Assembly (NCBI RefSeq): GCF_031312535.1
Contig: NZ_CP133594.1
Span: forward strand, 1,817,934-1,841,933
Direction: 5' to 3'
Length of the DNA stretch: 24,000 bases
Source: Methanolobus mangrovi
GTDB taxonomy: Archaea > Halobacteriota > Methanosarcinia > Methanosarcinales > Methanosarcinaceae
Part shown: positions 6,677 through 24,000 of the stretch, piece after piece
How the letters are laid out: every line of letters begins with the position of its first letter
Position numbering within the stretch: the first letter of the stretch is position 1
Program-made: the position numbers and the translations under genes
The notes under the pieces: generated by a model
What the model saw: the letters and a program-made list of their open reading frames with translations, nothing else
What the model was told of the DNA's origin: nothing
The model's database searches: none

Positions 6677-7270
6677 GTGGATAAATCAATAACATATTTT
6701 GATGATGTAGGTAAAGCAAATACAGAAGAAGTAATGAAATTATCTGCAAAAAGAGCAGCAGAACTTGGAATAAAACATGTGGTCCTGGCGAGCACAAGCG
6801 GTGAGACAGCACTTGTGGCTGCAGAAGCATTCAAGGATCAGGACGTAAAACTGATCGCTATAACCCACCAGTATGGACTGAAGGAAAGCGGAAAATGGGA
6901 AGTTGACGAGGATAAACTGAAGAAACTGAACGAACTGGGAGTCGTAATGACCACACAGTCCCACATGTTCTCAGGTGTCGAGCGTGCAATCTCAAACCGC
7001 ATTGGCGGTGCAAGTCGTGCTGACGTAATATCTGATACATTGCGTGCTGTTTTCGGAAAAGGATTCAAGGTAGCCATTGAATCTGCAATGATGGCTGCAG
7101 ATTCAGGACATATCCCGGTTTCCCCTGAAACAGAGATAATAGCTATAGGTGGAACTAGACAGGGTGCTGATGTTTCAGTTGTGCTCAGGCCTGCGCATTC
7201 TTTCGATTTCTTCAGCATTCAGGTAAGAGAAATAATAGCAATGCCAAGGGCTAAGGAAGAGCCAAAATAA
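6677..7270 (+). CDS. Pyruvate-kinase C-terminal (alpha/beta) domain-like protein
   Basis: The tracked ORF starts at TTG 6608. GTG 6677 is preferred because AAAGGTGAT lies 3 nt upstream. The motifs KHVVLASTSGETALVAAEAF...VKLIAITH and IIAIGGTRQGADVSVVLRP resemble the PK_C fold pattern. A hairpin terminator follows. Confidence 0.55.
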   Translation: MDKSITYFDDVGKANTEEVMKLSAKRAAELGIKHVVLASTSGETALVAAEAFKDQDVKLIAITHQYGLKESGKWEVDEDKLKKLNELGVVMTTQSHMFSGVERAISNRIGGASRADVISDTLRAVFGKGFKVAIESAMMAADSGHIPVSPETEIIAIGGTRQGADVSVVLRPAHSFDFFSIQVREIIAMPRAKEEPK

Positions 7271-8420: not shown

Positions 8421-8474
8421 AATCTGGATAGATACATTATAAAAGAAAAAAGTGGAATAAATGAGAAAATATGG

Positions 8475-9413
8475 CTAAATTGTCGGGGCCTTATTAAGCC
8501 GGACCCAGAAATTACTGCCGTTTTCAGGAGAATTGCTATCCACACCAACACCACCATTGTGAAGAGTAACTATCTTGTGCACAATTGCAAGACCAAGACC
8601 CGTACCTTTGATACTGCCTTTATTGACCTTATCTAATCTTGAAAAACGGGTGAAGATCATTTCCCTGTCCTGTTCAGGTATACCACTGCCGTTGTCTTTC
8701 ACATTTACCTGCCATTCTTTCCCTGCATCTGATATGGATATATCCACATGACCACCTTTTGGACCATATTTTATGGCATTGGAAATAAGGTTAACAAAAA
8801 CCTGCTCAATAAGGGGATTTACCAATGAGGGGTATGATCTGTCAATACCCATATCCACAGTCATTTCATTTTCCTCGAACTTGGGCATAAAAGTATCCAC
8901 GATATCCTGTAGAATTAAGCCAAGGTCATGAGTAGAATAATCCAGTTCTTCCACAGAATCCAGTTTGGCAAATTCTGCTGCTTTCTCTATAATGTATACA
9001 AGATTTCGGTTGCTCTTTTCTATATTTGTAAGTAGGGACTTTTTCTTTTCATCTTCCTCCCATTCAAGCAGAATAGAAACAAAGCCGTTGACCAAAGAAG
9101 CAGGATTCAGGAGATCATGACGCATAATGTCAGCAAAAAGCTCTTTCAGCTCATTGGAATGTTGTAACTCCTGAGCATACATAATGAGTTCCTGTTTGCT
9201 TTTTTCCAGATCATCGATCCATTGCCTGAACGCAAGACCATATGCCATCATAAGTTCTACAAGTGGTGTGGAAAGGAAACCTACACATTCCATCATATTC
9301 TTTGCAGGAAGGTCAGTGGCTAGCCTTGAGATCGCTAATTCATGTAGTTCAACAATATCTTCCGGAGGGACATTGCACCTGACCAATTCATAGCCTAGAT
9401 CTTCAGAACGCAT
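8475..9413 (-). CDS. Sensor histidine kinase with an RsbU_N-like (RsbT-binding type) N-terminal domain; true N-terminus probably upstream of the first ATG
   Basis: HisKA and HATPase_c motifs are present: H-box FADIMRHDLLNP, N-box NLISNAIKYGPKGG, G-boxes VKDNGSGIP and GTGLGLAIV. The N-terminus (NVPPEDIVELHELAISRL ... LVELMMAYGLAFRQW) aligns with B. subtilis RsbU residues IPPEEIISIH ... IEVMIGYGMAYQEH. There are no TM segments. The frame is open 28 more codons, up to 9497. TAG stop. Confidence 0.85.
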   Translation of the reverse strand: MRSEDLGYELVRCNVPPEDIVELHELAISRLATDLPAKNMMECVGFLSTPLVELMMAYGLAFRQWIDDLEKSKQELIMYAQELQHSNELKELFADIMRHDLLNPASLVNGFVSILLEWEEDEKKKSLLTNIEKSNRNLVYIIEKAAEFAKLDSVEELDYSTHDLGLILQDIVDTFMPKFEENEMTVDMGIDRSYPSLVNPLIEQVFVNLISNAIKYGPKGGHVDISISDAGKEWQVNVKDNGSGIPEQDREMIFTRFSRLDKVNKGSIKGTGLGLAIVHKIVTLHNGGVGVDSNSPENGSNFWVRLNKAPTI

Positions 9414-9497
9414 CAGGTATTTTTCTTCACGAGTGGTAACATAACCTTTCAGAATCCCATAATACCTTTCTTTAAAATCGGTTTCCGTAATAATGCA

Positions 9498-10079
9498 TCA
9501 CCCCTGCATATACACTAATATGGTTGCATCATCAGTCATGCGCCCGTGATCATCCAGTATTTTTTTTGCCAGCTGTTGCTCATCCTGTAGCATGTATGAG
9601 TCATACGATGAAATCTTAATATTTTCAGGAATACCATCAGTCCACATTACCAGAAGATCATTTGTGGAAATATTTGCCCTCTCAATATGTAAATGCCTGA
9701 ATCCACCACCTACGATACCCCAGCTGGAAGGAAAATGAGAAGCTTTTTCACCATATATCATTGTACGAGTATTTCCAATACCCCCATACTCAAGAATACC
9801 CTCATTCTGATCGATGCGGGCGATGCTCATGGCTACACCTCTTGTTTGTTTTATAGCCCTGTCACATCCTGAGAACAGAGTACCAAGAGATTCCTGCAGA
9901 TGAGAGGAAACGTAATCTAAAGCAGCTTTTGCTGCTTCTTCAGCATGTTTACCATGACCGAGTCCATCAACCATACAGAGAGTCAATGTATCATCTTCAA
10001 GCCACCAGTCACACTGGTCTCCACAGTGTATATCACCATTGAACGAACGTGATTCTGTTGCTACTCGCATAAATACCAC
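9498..10079 (-). CDS. rsbX: RsbX-like PP2C-type serine phosphatase (short, single-domain)
   Basis: 193 aa. The segments HCGDQCDWW...LCMVDGLGHGKHAEEAAKAA...TRGVAMSIARID...GIGNTR...LLVMWTDGI are collinear with B. subtilis RsbX (SGDSY...VADGLGSG...RGATASILKI...SVGNVR...IIHTDGL). Start is GTG 10079 or ATG 10070, and both overlap the upstream gene. Confidence 0.85.
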   Translation of the reverse strand: MVFMRVATESRSFNGDIHCGDQCDWWLEDDTLTLCMVDGLGHGKHAEEAAKAALDYVSSHLQESLGTLFSGCDRAIKQTRGVAMSIARIDQNEGILEYGGIGNTRTMIYGEKASHFPSSWGIVGGGFRHLHIERANISTNDLLVMWTDGIPENIKISSYDSYMLQDEQQLAKKILDDHGRMTDDATILVYMQG

Positions 10080-10504
10080 AACCGGGTTGTAATACAGGTC
10101 TTTGAATCGCCTGTTACTGAAATATCTAATTCGTCCATAATCCTTTTAACTGCAGGTAGTCCGGAACCAAGGCCATTGCCCGTGGAATAACCATCCTGCA
10201 AAGCCAGATCCACATCCATTATACCCGGACCAGAATCGTTGGATACTATCTCAATTCCTATGTACCCATCTTTCCGGACCTCCCTGATAGTTATGGAGCC
10301 ACCGTTACTGGCATGGTGAACCAGATTAGAAGCAAGCTCGGATGCAGAAGTCGCGGCTTTATGTGAAGCAAGTTCTGAGAATCCTAGTTTCTTTGCAATT
10401 GACCGAACAGTAGTCTGAACATTTGCAACATGAGACAAGTTCGTTACCTCTACCATCGACTTCAGTCCATTTTCAGGAGACGTGTATTCACAAATTTCAG
10501 ACAT
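10061..10504 (-). CDS. Second RsbT-type GHKL serine kinase paralog
   Basis: 147 aa. The motifs ATSASELASNLVHHA (N-box) and NDSGPGI...DGYSTGNGLGSGLPAVKRIMDEL have the RsbT-type C-terminal signature, not the RsbW-type. An 8-nt ATGTCTGA overlap joins it to the upstream rsbT-like gene. TAG stop. Confidence 0.8.
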   Translation of the reverse strand: MSEICEYTSPENGLKSMVEVTNLSHVANVQTTVRSIAKKLGFSELASHKAATSASELASNLVHHASNGGSITIREVRKDGYIGIEIVSNDSGPGIMDVDLALQDGYSTGNGLGSGLPAVKRIMDELDISVTGDSKTCITTRLWYLCE

Positions 10505-10919
10505 TAGGACGACACATCTCTAAATTTATTTTTGTTAAGCCGGGACGTGATTCTATAGAAAAATCATTCACAAGCCTCTTTGCGCCAGGAAGACCTGCGC
10601 CTAAACCGCCACCAGTCGTATATCCGTCTTCCATGGCCTTATTCAGATCAGCGATCCCCGGACCATAATCTTCGATCTCTACTTTTACCTTGATTTCTGC
10701 CGATGAAACTTCCGTAATGATATGGCATACGCCTTGGCCTGCATATTTAATCACATTCCTTGTCAGCTCAGAGATTGCAGTAGCCATACGAGTCTGATCT
10801 GCGGAACCAAAGCCTATTTCTGCCATTTCTTTTCTGGCAATCTGCCGGGCTATGAGAATATCATCTTCAATCTTGAGATCAATGCTTTTCTCGGCTATGC
10901 TACTCAACCCCTTCTTCAA
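10497..10919 (-). CDS. rsbT: RsbT-like serine kinase (stressosome kinase / switch protein)
   Basis: 140 aa. The segments DILIARQIARKEMAEIGFGSADQTRMATAISELTRNVIKYAG...DYGPGI...MEDGYTTGGGLGAGLPGAKRLVNDF are near-collinear with B. subtilis RsbT (DIVAARQLGRNVAKELGFGTVDQARITTAISELARNIYLYAG...DQGPGI...MEDGFSTSGGLGAGLPGVKRLMDEF). The tracked start is TTG 10919 and overlaps the rsbS end. An alternative TTG at 10907 makes the start uncertain. Confidence 0.88.
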   Translation of the reverse strand: MKKGLSSIAEKSIDLKIEDDILIARQIARKEMAEIGFGSADQTRMATAISELTRNVIKYAGQGVCHIITEVSSAEIKVKVEIEDYGPGIADLNKAMEDGYTTGGGLGAGLPGAKRLVNDFSIESRPGLTKINLEMCRPNV

Positions 10920-11265
10920 TCATTTCAAGAAGCTTGTCAAAGCCTTTGTCGAGATTAAGGGCAGTGTCAACTCCAATAAGTTCCCGCCCCATCTCAACCA
11001 GTGTAAGCGCAACCATTGGCTGCATACCACACAGGACAACGCGAGTACCCATAAGACGTGCCATCCTTGCCGTCTCATTGATCACACGGGCCATGAAAGA
11101 ATCCACAATATCCATTGCAGTTATATCAATGATAAGACCCTTTGAGCCACTTTTTTCAAGAGTTGAAACGACGTCTGATTGATACTTCAGAGCATCATCG
11201 TCAGTCATGTCACTCTGTATTGAAGTGAGCAGGATATTCTTTAGTTTCAGTATTGGTATTTCCAT
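10900..11265 (-). CDS. rsbS: RsbS-like single-STAS-domain stressosome scaffold protein
   Basis: 121 aa, collinear end to end with B. subtilis RsbS. IPILKL.N.LL.SIQ and LIIDITAMDIVDSFMARV match VVIDLTSVDMIDSFIAKV, and GTRVVLCGMQPMVALTLVEMG matches [21 protein letters not shown]. Ser56 aligns with the phospho-acceptor Ser59. GGGTG SD upstream. Confidence 0.9.
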   Translation of the reverse strand: MEIPILKLKNILLTSIQSDMTDDDALKYQSDVVSTLEKSGSKGLIIDITAMDIVDSFMARVINETARMARLMGTRVVLCGMQPMVALTLVEMGRELIGVDTALNLDKGFDKLLEMIEEGVE

Positions 11266-11280
11266 AGGAACACCCGGAGC

Positions 11281-12078
11281 TCATACCATTTTTTTTCCTA
11301 CAATAGCAAAAGCCTTTGAGACACCGTCACGCAATGAACCAGTAGTGATTATACCGCTCATGTCAACTCCGAGAGTCACAATTGTTTGGGCAACATTTGG
11401 ACTGAAACCGGTAATGATTACTTCCGCACCAAGCATTTTGCCGGCACTTACAGTCTTCAGGATATGCTGTGCAACACTTGTATCTATCATTGGAACACCA
11501 GTCACATCAAGTATTGCCACAGCTGCTTCATTTTCAACAATCGAGGATAATAGGTTCTCAATTATCTGCTGAGCACGCATTGTATCGATCACCCCTACTA
11601 ATGGAAGAATCACAATACCATCCCAGAGTTTAATAACAGGTGTTGAAAGTTCCATTATAGTACGGCTGTGAGCCCGGACCTCTGCTTCAATCTTTACCCT
11701 GTCACTTATGTCAATGACATATTCAACTCCACCTATAATGTTACCTTCTTTATCCTTCAATGGAGCTGCAGTATACTCTACAGGGAAGGTTTTGCCAGCA
11801 GCTGTGATCTCATTCCTCCAGACATATACCCTGCCATTTTCCATGGCTTGTTTAACACGGCAATTGTTGGTATTACAATGAGGAGAACGCACCAGGTCAT
11901 AACATTTCTTACCTTCAATGTTCTCAAAATCCTCTCCAAGCCACCTACATCCAACAGCATTAAGAGAAAGGATGTTAAAATCAAGATCAACTGCCATCAC
12001 CATACATGGAAGCTGATCAAGTACATTTTTATTAGAAAAATTATCCATCACAGCAGGAATTTCTGTTTCTGTTTTCAT
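11281..12078 (-). CDS. rsbR: RsbR-like stressosome sensor: N-terminal PAS domain plus C-terminal STAS domain
   Basis: 265 aa. Residues about 15-130 have a PAS pattern (MVMAVDLDFNILSLNAVGCRWLG...GKKCYDL...PLKDKEGNIIGGVEYVIDISDRVKIE). Residues about 145-265 match the RsbR STAS domain: TPVIKLWDGIVILPLVG, LDVTGVPMIDTSVAQHI and ITGFSPNVAQTIVTLG. These correspond to B. subtilis LDITGVPVVDTMVAHHI and GIRPEIAQTIVNLG. Confidence 0.88.
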   Translation of the reverse strand: MKTETEIPAVMDNFSNKNVLDQLPCMVMAVDLDFNILSLNAVGCRWLGEDFENIEGKKCYDLVRSPHCNTNNCRVKQAMENGRVYVWRNEITAAGKTFPVEYTAAPLKDKEGNIIGGVEYVIDISDRVKIEAEVRAHSRTIMELSTPVIKLWDGIVILPLVGVIDTMRAQQIIENLLSSIVENEAAVAILDVTGVPMIDTSVAQHILKTVSAGKMLGAEVIITGFSPNVAQTIVTLGVDMSGIITTGSLRDGVSKAFAIVGKKMV

Positions 12079-12290
12079 ATGAAAGCCTCTCGAATAAACA
12101 ATTATACACTAAATATATATTATAACACTGTATAATAATACATATATATAAACGGGACTGTTAACACAATATGCTTTTTTGCAAATTTGTACAAAAAAAT
12201 AAAATAACCATAAACAATGCATCCTATCCGAAAACCTTAAAAGCAATGTAGCGTATTTCAAATCAATCTCGGCACTTAAATACTGTTTCA
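12079..12290. promoter_or_regulatory. AT-rich divergent promoter region between the stressosome-like operon (minus) and serB (plus)
   Basis: The 212-nt spacer carries several TATA-like boxes on both strands (for example TTTATATATATG and TTATAATATATA on the minus strand). It also holds a 10-bp palindrome TTTGTACAAA flanked by T6/A7 runs (12175-12199). Which box is used cannot be told from sequence. Confidence 0.4.
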
Positions 12291-21282: not shown

Positions 21283-21405
21283 AGTTGGCAGCGATCCAGA
21301 GTTCCCGAAGACTCTCGTACTTCAGTACAGTAAGGAACGCTGGCGGGCTTATCTTCTGTGTTCGGGATGGGTACAGGAATCTCCCCGCCGCTATGGCCGC
21401 CAAAC
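21283..21405 (-). rRNA. 5S: 5S rRNA
   Basis: The reverse complement reads TTGGCGGCCATAGCGGCGGGGAGATTCCTGTACCCATCCCGAACACAGAAGATAAGCCCGCCAGCGTTCC...GGATCGCTGCCAA. The terminal helix is UUGGCGGC/GCUGCCAA. Oligo-T runs follow on the minus strand. The ends are approximate to within a few nt. Confidence 0.9.
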
Positions 21406-21432
21406 TCTCTCATAATGAATAGTAAATGGTAA

Positions 21433-21504
21433 AGCCAAGGTCCGGATTCGAACCGGAATGGAATCGCTCTGCAGGCGATTGCGTAGCCGCTCCGCCACCT
21501 TGGC
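21433..21504 (-). tRNA. tRNA-Cys(GCA): tRNA-Cys (anticodon GCA)
   Basis: The reverse complement is GCCAAGG-TG-GCGG-AGCGGCTA-CGCA-A-TCGCC-TGCAGAG-GCGAT... It folds as a cloverleaf with acceptor GCCAAGG/CCTTGGC, anticodon stem ATCGC/GCGAT, loop CTGCAGA and T arm TCCGG-TTCGAAT-CCGGA. The discriminator is U, as expected for tRNA-Cys. No CCA is encoded. Confidence 0.93.
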
Positions 21505-21597
21505 AACAAGCGATTCATAAATGAATCAATTACACTTATACTTTACCTTGAGTTCGTGTATATTAAACATGCACATATCAGATTTCGCCTGGACAAA

Positions 21598-24000
<2,403 letters not shown>

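Follow-up and report, generated by a model that had tools for sequence, protein, structure and literature searches.

The 24-kb stretch of Methanolobus mangrovi DNA analysed here, referred to as the window in the following, carries at positions 8475-12078 six co-directional open reading frames (ORFs) in the order rsbR-rsbS-rsbT-T2-rsbX-kinase, where T2 denotes a paralogue of rsbT (T1). We conclude that these genes are likely to constitute a stressosome-type RsbR-RsbS-RsbT-RsbX module with a histidine kinase as its output. All of them, and all features of the operon for which coordinates are given below, lie on the minus strand. A first-pass annotation had described six tightly packed genes of this kind; all are indeed present in the ORF map, and by profile search, by comparison with sequences of solved structures or by direct alignment each of the six products falls into the family of its stressosome counterpart. 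The ratios of non-synonymous to synonymous substitution rates (dN/dS) in comparison with two Methanolobus genomes amount to 0.03-0.12 for rsbR, rsbS, rsbT, rsbX and the kinase gene and to 0.18-0.21 for T2; the neighbouring mtd gene reaches 0.05-0.07 in the same comparison. All six genes are thus under purifying selection, and because this applies to every one of them (0.03-0.21), the gene arrangement is far beyond what would be expected by chance.

The genes are closely spaced, largely as had been annotated. A non-overlapping gap of 15 nucleotides (nt) separates rsbR and rsbS, rsbT and T2 overlap by 8 nt (ATGTCTGA), and T2 and rsbX overlap by 10 nt if rsbX is read from its ATG, which is the GenBank start, or by 19 nt if it is read from a GTG. 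The 20-nt overlap that had been assigned to rsbS and rsbT holds for the first TTG of rsbT; from the second TTG at 10907 it amounts to 8 nt, and this second TTG is probably the actual start, since the start of the M. halotolerans gene was called there. The zero gap that had been assigned to the last junction could not be maintained, since there is no ATG at this position: the first in-frame ATG is located at 9413, and the GenBank start of the kinase gene is an ATT at 9494.

The putative core of the module is formed by RsbS and RsbR. rsbS (10900..11265; GenBank WMW21496.1) encodes a protein of 121 amino acids with a single STAS domain (Pfam STAS, E 2e-10), which matches RsbS of B. subtilis (6jhk, E 7e-30) and Listeria (6qcm, E 3e-29) as well as MtS of Moorella (2vy9, E 4e-26); members of its protein cluster are annotated as 'rsbT antagonist protein RsbS'. 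The collinearity and the phospho-acceptor serine proposed earlier were borne out, as the alignment with Listeria RsbS is ungapped across residues 1-115 and places Ser56 (codon 11098-11100, context D55-S56-F57) opposite Listeria Ser56, the phosphorylation of which was shown experimentally (PMC8942246). rsbR (11281..12078; GenBank WMW21497.1) encodes a PAS domain followed by a STAS domain (Pfam PAS_4, E 4e-16; STAS, E 2e-14), and the STAS half matches Listeria RsbR with an E value of 4e-32. An AlphaFold2 model of RsbR (predicted local distance difference test, pLDDT, 84.6) finds full-length YtvA as its best Foldseek match (2mwg, E 1.5e-16), and the next matches are stressosome RsbR and RsbS structures. 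GenBank already names a Methanosarcina homologue RsbR, and the label "rsbT co-antagonist protein RsbR" is attached to a homologue.

The two phosphosites named for Listeria RsbR, T175 and T209 (PMC8942246), correspond in an ungapped alignment (offset +9) to T166 (codon 11581-11583) and T200 (codon 11479-11481), which are located 34 positions apart in the STAS segment 11479..11583 and which we predict to be the phospho-acceptors for RsbT. Among 121 homologues, D165 and D199 are invariant, position 200 is a threonine in 119, and position 166 is a threonine in 84 and a serine in 37. Of the pair T200 and T232 that had been put forward in the first-pass annotation, T200 was therefore retained; T232 is conserved, yet matches neither of the known phosphosites. 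Since the window contains a single RsbR gene, a simple partner-switching module would also be conceivable, in which RsbT is bound by small RsbR/RsbS oligomers, similar to switches of the RsbV/RsbW type, without formation of a ~1.5-MDa hub. We regard this as unlikely, given that RsbS and the STAS domain of RsbR align over their full length with proteins of the icosahedral core (E 1e-29 to 1e-32), and that the matched stressosome structures include those of Vibrio and Moorella, whose systems have a single RsbR (7o0i, 2vy9).

The proteins assigned to the switch and to the reset of the module also match bacterial counterparts. rsbT (10497..10919) encodes a GHKL Ser/Thr switch kinase of 136-140 amino acids (Pfam HATPase_c_2, HATPase_c) that is 48% identical to B. 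subtilis RsbT over 118 amino acids, the reference sequence having been confirmed as RSBT_BACSU by exact look-up. The motifs TAISELTRN and GGGLGAGLPGAKRL, which had been noticed before, are present; a phmmer search with RsbT found no RsbT chain among the PDB sequences. rsbX (9498..10070; GenBank WMW21493.1) encodes a single-domain PP2C/SpoIIE phosphatase of 190 amino acids from the ATG (Pfam SpoIIE, E 1e-7), with a GTG at 10079 as alternative start (ORF 9498-10079). The SpoIIE domain covers residues 29-184 of 193, without an N-terminal regulatory domain, and the nearest solved relatives are Moorella MtX (3zt9, E 1.4e-21) and B. subtilis RsbX (3w40, E 9e-12), in line with the RsbX-type PP2C assigned before.

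T2 (10061..10504, 147 amino acids; Pfam HATPase_c_2, E 9e-11) has a complete set of GHKL motifs (E56, N60, D90-x-G-P-G, G113-x-G115) and shows identities of 35% to T1 and of 36% to B. subtilis RsbT; it is 100% identical to a recorded protein of M. mangrovi. Tandem T1-T2 genes were found in 16 of the 80 loci of a metagenome scan seeded with T2 motifs, several of them with an RsbU_N gene directly after rsbX; the remaining loci are mostly ordinary R-S-T-X modules. At seven metagenome loci the T2 and RsbX domains are part of one ORF (HATPase_c_2 plus SpoIIE; L031 149-1201, L035 6076-7140, L047 2006-3028, L065 8210-9442, L075 7731-9005, L082 1835-2857 and L087 7932-8993). Because the two proteins are fused as one polypeptide in these related cassettes, which represents Rosetta-stone-type evidence, T2 most likely acts together with the reset phosphatase RsbX. 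A description of the tandem T2 kinase was not found in the literature library searched. Three further loci showed R-S-T followed by an ORF with an RsbU_N domain (L034 8428-8679, L062 8465-9277 and L069 902-1723). At L062 and L069 PP2C is also weakly matched within this ORF (24-26 bits), so that the ORF would encode an RsbU of the Bacillus type; at L034 the sole PP2C match lies in a separate ORF ~2.5 kb downstream of the RsbU_N ORF. A separate RsbX-like gene is located further downstream in all three.

The last gene of the operon (8475..9494) encodes a soluble histidine kinase with the domain order RsbU_N-HisKA-HATPase_c, which comprises 339 amino acids in GenBank when read from the ATT start (WMW23468.1). 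The HisKA (29.8 bits) and HATPase_c (98 bits) matches agree with the soluble HisKA/HATPase kinase described earlier. The phospho-accepting histidine of the H-box MRHDLLNP is encoded at 9117..9119 (His125 when counted from codon 9491, His126 in GenBank numbering), and H125, N238, D266-x-G-x-G and G296-x-G-x-G-L are invariant in an alignment of 35 sequences. The N-terminal RsbU_N domain (9222..9494; Pfam and PDB searches), presumably the docking site of RsbT, includes the 27 codons 5' of the ATG at 9413. With the upstream 27-28 codons it reaches 43.9 bits and covers profile positions 1-75 (cutoff 25.5), and from the ATG at 9413 alone it reaches 25.2 bits, which is just under the cutoff. In the PDB search, the N-domain matched only N-domain structures of B. 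subtilis RsbU (E 2.5e-7), so that the resemblance to RsbU_N noted in the first-pass annotation was confirmed, provided that the non-ATG extension is included. The AlphaFold2 monomer of the kinase (pLDDT 80.2) shows a four-helix RsbU_N, followed by a continuous helix (residues 74-144) that runs into the H-box at His125; in the model, this helix has the geometry needed by the published mechanism, in which RsbT orders a linker.

The kinase gene and rsbX share a reading frame, and no ATG, GTG or TTG is present in the kinase frame between the rsbX TGA (9498-9500) and the ATG at 9413, a stretch that encodes helix 1 of RsbU_N. We compared the start regions of four loci (window 9413-9500, L001 9995-10087, L017 6995-7010 and L016 ~6960-7000). 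The M. halotolerans junction TGATG-AAT-ATT-ACA contains a normal overlapping ATG start, M. mangrovi reads TGATGCATTATT, and one extra base directly after the ancestral ATG is found in M. mangrovi, in an uncultured Methanolobus with 91% kinase identity and in Methanolobus sp. ZRKC1. The comparison indicates that the ancestral kinase ATG of M. mangrovi was put out of frame by the insertion of 1 nt, and initiation at the ATT would be the simplest reading of the kinase N-terminus. Read-through of the TGA, which would give an RsbX-kinase fusion, was considered and found to be unsupported; the same applies to a -1 frameshift from the displaced ATG, and CATTATT is not a canonical slippery site.

The full cassette occupies the same position between serB and mtd in M. 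halotolerans and in the uncultured Methanolobus. In ZRKC1 (L016 5954-8907, CP146978.1), only an N-terminally truncated RsbU_N-kinase is left at this site, and remnants of rsbR, rsbS, rsbT, T2 or rsbX are not detectable in the serB-mtd gap. Methanosarcina horonobensis and Methanosarcina sp. KYL-1 encode R-S-T-X-RsbU_N-kinase at a different locus and without T2, and no T2 remnants are present in the respective T-X gaps (L007 9124-9420; L013 7780-7876). The rsbT-rsbX gap of KYL-1 (~290 nt) holds an ORF of 96 amino acids, which has neither a Pfam match nor similarity to T2. With the ancestral ATG of the kinase lost through the insertion, five genes deleted in ZRKC1 and T2 missing from Methanosarcina, the cassette might be viewed as a decaying relic of horizontal transfer that is no longer functional in M. 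mangrovi. This appears highly improbable to us, since the six ORFs are intact with the low dN/dS ratios given above, and the 27 codons 5' of the ATG at 9413 are still coding-like, with six synonymous changes and one non-synonymous change relative to the 91%-identical kinase gene (L001). Moreover, the frameshifted start is common to these two species and has therefore persisted under selection.

Related cassettes are found beyond the Methanosarcinaceae. In a metagenome-assembled genome (MAG) of the Deltaproteobacteria (L015), the gene for an RsbU_N-PAS-HisKA protein comes after R-S-T-T2-X, and the RsbR encoded there shares 56% identity with that of M. mangrovi; contig L012 carries the same six genes and then an adjacent REC-HTH regulator, and the cassette R-S-T-T2-X-RsbU_N-kinase is also present in the metagenome contigs L018, L020, L026 and L064. 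The suggestion in the first-pass annotation that the wiring is specific to archaea was thus not upheld. In a neighbour-joining tree of 66 RsbR proteins of the same architecture (100 bootstraps), the Methanolobus and Methanosarcina sequences form one clade together with four unlabelled sequences (bootstrap 92/100), which is embedded among sequences that carry the label Deltaproteobacteria or Desulfovibrionales (Desulfobacterota). Transfer between bacteria and an ancestor of Methanosarcinaceae would be the parsimonious reading, its direction being suggested mainly because the module is far more widespread in bacteria. An ancestor within the Methanosarcinaceae would then have acquired the cassette from anaerobic bacteria similar to Desulfobacterota, or shared it with them, and after its arrival the cassette would have been inherited vertically at the serB-mtd locus.

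The kinase appears to be of mixed descent. Its RsbU_N is 56-57% identical to RsbU_N of the Methanosarcina stressosome kinases, whereas its catalytic core (8475-9160) shares only ~30% identity with these kinases but 50-53% with kinases of Methanococcoides, Methanolobus and Methanosalsum that do not belong to stressosome modules (comparison with L007, L013 and proteins P0011-P0060). As judged from these identities, the kinase is a chimera of a stressosome-type RsbU_N and a core that is typical of Methanosarcinaceae, and because core and RsbU_N show opposite patterns, a domain swap after the arrival of the cassette is suggested. RsbU_N is joined to different cores in different cassettes, namely to a HisKA core in Methanolobus, to another HisKA core in Methanosarcina and to a HisKA_2/HWE core in L012. 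A contig scan with the kinase yielded one true orthologue; the five others were unrelated bacterial kinases with 26-28% identity. The Methanosarcinaceae-typical core, with its closeness to non-stressosome kinases, would likewise suit a kinase that works independently of RsbT, with RsbU_N serving only for dimerisation and RsbT and/or T2 signalling to another target; in ZRKC1 the kinase is retained although the other genes of the module are missing, and an interaction between RsbT and the kinase was not detected in V. vulnificus (PMC9237108). We nevertheless consider such uncoupling quite improbable, as RsbU_N was kept through at least three kinase cores, always directly after rsbX, and is the known RsbT-binding domain, with RsbT binding ordering the linker of RsbU (PMC12143880, PMC9237108), while the truncation of RsbU_N in the orphan kinase of ZRKC1 is consistent with the loss of its partner.

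Returning to a stressosome that is read out by this kinase, we propose the following sequence of events, in which the assembly, the identity of the signal, the activation of the kinase by RsbT, the part played by T2 and the regulator that follows the kinase are predicted from homology. RsbR and RsbS would co-assemble via their STAS domains into a core that sequesters RsbT. The PAS domain of RsbR would sense a signal, probably the redox state or a metal/Fe-S cofactor on an invariant cysteine triad, upon which RsbT would phosphorylate RsbS at S56 and RsbR at T166 and T200 and then dissociate. Free RsbT would bind the dimeric RsbU_N of the kinase, order the helix that leads into the dimerisation and histidine phosphotransfer domain and change the autophosphorylation of His125, and the phosphoryl group may be passed on to a response regulator encoded elsewhere. 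RsbX would reset the system by dephosphorylating RsbS and RsbR, and T2 would most likely work with RsbX on this reset or feedback arm.

The cysteine triad is located in the pocket region of the RsbR PAS domain (residues 59-73, 11860..11904) and was found by alignment of homologues; it reads C59-Y-D61...H67-C68...C73, i.e. C-x8-C-x4-C. C59, C68 and C73 are unchanged in all 66 homologues of the same architecture, and 57 of them have D or E at position 61. A library search with the PAS domain by itself returned 15,372 representatives at E values up to 0.001, and the motif is present in 118 of the best 148 of these relatives, usually in the form CYDLFKTPHCxTxxC and often in 2-5 tandem copies. The 10 relatives that were sampled are chemoreceptor (MCP), HAMP or multi-PAS proteins, and by this distribution the Cys-triad PAS appears as a very widespread PAS subtype of chemoreceptors and multi-PAS sensors. 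By motif, the nearest studied analogue is the PAS domain of OrpR from Desulfovibrio vulgaris, a [4Fe-4S] redox sensor with C52, D/E54, C61 and C65 (PMC8359166). Both share three PAS cysteines and an acidic residue at +2 (C-x-[DE]-x6-C-x3/4-C), a likeness by motif alone; the last cysteine is spaced by x3 in OrpR and by x4 in RsbR, and OrpR belongs to the sigma-54 activators and not to the STAS proteins. By analogy, we infer that the triad of RsbR is a candidate metal or Fe-S site.

Compared with YtvA, the LOV-STAS RsbR paralogue of B. subtilis, RsbR shares the PAS - J-alpha helix - STAS architecture, and YtvA is also its best NCBIfam match; it differs from YtvA in that the FMN-binding motif (GxNCRFLQ, with NCRFLQ at its core) is missing and GKKCYDLV, with the first cysteine of the triad, stands in its place. 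A LOV/flavin reading of the PAS domain was rejected, as LOV matches appeared only at E ~0.08 or weaker, and membership in the YtvA blue-light photoreceptor family NF052652 was rejected as well (89.5 bits compared with a cutoff of 250). Apart from the modules described so far, a 1.85-Mb ENA contig (L014 5638-9268) contains three PAS-STAS RsbR-like genes in tandem, two of which are PAS-PAS-STAS and 51-53% identical to RsbR of the window; no rsbS, rsbT or rsbX is located within 7 kb of this trio.

Taking these features together, Methanosarcinaceae may have domesticated a bacterial stressosome as a redox hub, with an Fe-S-type PAS input for the redox or oxygen state inside the cell, a specialisation of T1 for output and of T2 for reset, and an RsbU_N that was re-fused to a native archaeal kinase core, through which a megadalton sensor of bacterial origin would act on an endogenous two-component pathway of the archaeon. 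We put this more elaborate reading forward tentatively and consider it rather doubtful as a whole. If it were true, Archaea would provide the first case of a stressosome whose chemical input is defined and whose output is a direct phosphorelay.

Several observations weigh against our interpretation. No gene for a response regulator or a receiver domain is present within the 24-kb window, and the module is partly dispensable, as ZRKC1 has lost rsbR through rsbX and Methanosarcina manages without T2. According to our reading of the start region, expression of the full RsbU_N in M. mangrovi would depend on the non-canonical ATT start. In V. vulnificus no interaction between RsbT and the kinase was shown, though the kinase of this species is without RsbU_N (PMC9237108). 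Regarding the input, none of the 10 sampled PAS relatives is an OrpR-like sigma-54 activator, and the link between the cysteine triad and OrpR is at present a motif resemblance only, to be taken as a lead rather than as homology. Finally, an experimental study of an archaeal stressosome was not found in the literature searched, which is in agreement with the corresponding statement in the first-pass annotation.

A novelty implied in that annotation could not be sustained in other respects. It was already stated that rsbRSTX occurs "even in some archaeal species" (PMC9237108) and that it is found "in both bacteria and archaea" (PMC8942246). Likewise, RsbU_N-kinases that adjoin stressosome genes were described in alpha-, beta- and gamma-Proteobacteria (Heinz 2022, PMC9237108; Baral 2025, PMC12143880), and they were proposed as likely targets of RsbT via a coiled-coil linker (PMC9237108, PMC12143880). 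Bacteria already provide precedents for the components, for the order in which they are encoded and for the logic proposed.

When compared with the stressosomes of B. subtilis and Listeria, the M. mangrovi module shares orthologous RsbS, RsbR STAS, RsbT and RsbX, the conserved phospho-Ser and both Thr residues, and an RsbU_N on the output protein. It differs from them in that RsbU phosphatase, RsbV, RsbW and a sigma factor are missing, RsbU_N is located on a histidine kinase, rsbX directly follows the kinases, RsbT has a second paralogue, a PAS domain takes the place of the non-haem globin as sensor, and the host is an archaeon. The rsbRSTX modules of Vibrio vulnificus and V. brasiliensis have the same R-S-T-X order and a histidine kinase gene immediately downstream, but Vibrio RsbR is a haem-globin O2 sensor and the Vibrio kinase has no RsbU_N; in comparison with the proteobacterial and Vibrio two-component modules in general, M. 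mangrovi has a Cys-triad PAS, an additional T2 and no adjacent response regulator. In the MtR-MtS-MtT-MtX-MtG module of Moorella thermoacetica, MtX is the nearest solved relative of RsbX, MtS matches RsbS, and RsbU_N likewise precedes a non-phosphatase effector, which is the GAF-GGDEF diguanylate cyclase MtG in Moorella and a HisKA/HATPase kinase in M. mangrovi. The Deltaproteobacteria MAG and the metagenome contigs named above have the same gene order, and the RsbR of the MAG carries the same Cys-triad PAS. The kinase cores of this MAG (PAS-HisKA) and of L012 (HisKA_2/HWE) are different, and L012 also differs in having another type of RsbR PAS without the cysteine triad and an adjacent REC-HTH regulator, compared with none at the archaeal locus.

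If functional, the module would plug a bacterial supramolecular stress sensor into archaeal signalling, which is free of sigma factors, and it would be enough for this to transplant the small docking domain RsbU_N to a resident kinase. It would also represent a clear case of modular rewiring after gene transfer between domains of life. For methanogens, it offers a candidate redox or oxygen stress pathway. The compact system, with one RsbR, all proteins soluble, a direct kinase read-out and a Cys-triad sensor, could be a tractable model for the old question of what stressosomes sense, and the chimeric output kinase, the link between T2 and RsbX, the Cys-triad PAS and the non-canonical kinase start appear worth following.

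With regard to transcription, a TATA-box-like element (TTTATATATA, 12143..12152), read from the sequence ~65-75 nt 5' of the rsbR ATG, is a putative archaeal promoter of the operon, and a GAGG Shine-Dalgarno-like element is located 8 nt 5' of the same ATG. At the other end, an oligo-T run (TTTTTTCTTTT, 8441..8451), likewise read from the letters, starts ~24 nt past the kinase stop codon and is a putative transcription terminator. The two elements would fit a single transcription unit for all six genes.

The operon is flanked by housekeeping genes on both sides, namely those for SepRS, endonuclease V, PAC2 and Mtd on one side and those for a HAD/SerB-like hydrolase, DUF7121, a radical-SAM protein, UbiA, archaeosine TGT and TrkHA on the other. 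Its guanine-plus-cytosine (GC) content equals that of the flanks, and since the serB-mtd position is also conserved in other Methanolobus, the locus is no obvious island, as had been concluded before. The reported absence of RsbV, RsbW and SigB was confirmed as well, with no sigma, RsbV or RsbW genes within the 24-kb window. As a difference in the surroundings, ZRKC1 carries a gene with an SduA_C domain between TGT and UbiA (L016 328-1383), which has no counterpart at that place in the window. The end of the window (21283-24000) contains, on the minus strand, a 5S rRNA gene (21283-21404), a tRNA gene (21433-21504) and the 3' 2.4 kb of an archaeal 23S rRNA gene, which confirms the archaeal host assumed in the first-pass annotation; these rRNA and tRNA genes account for the rise in GC content at this end.

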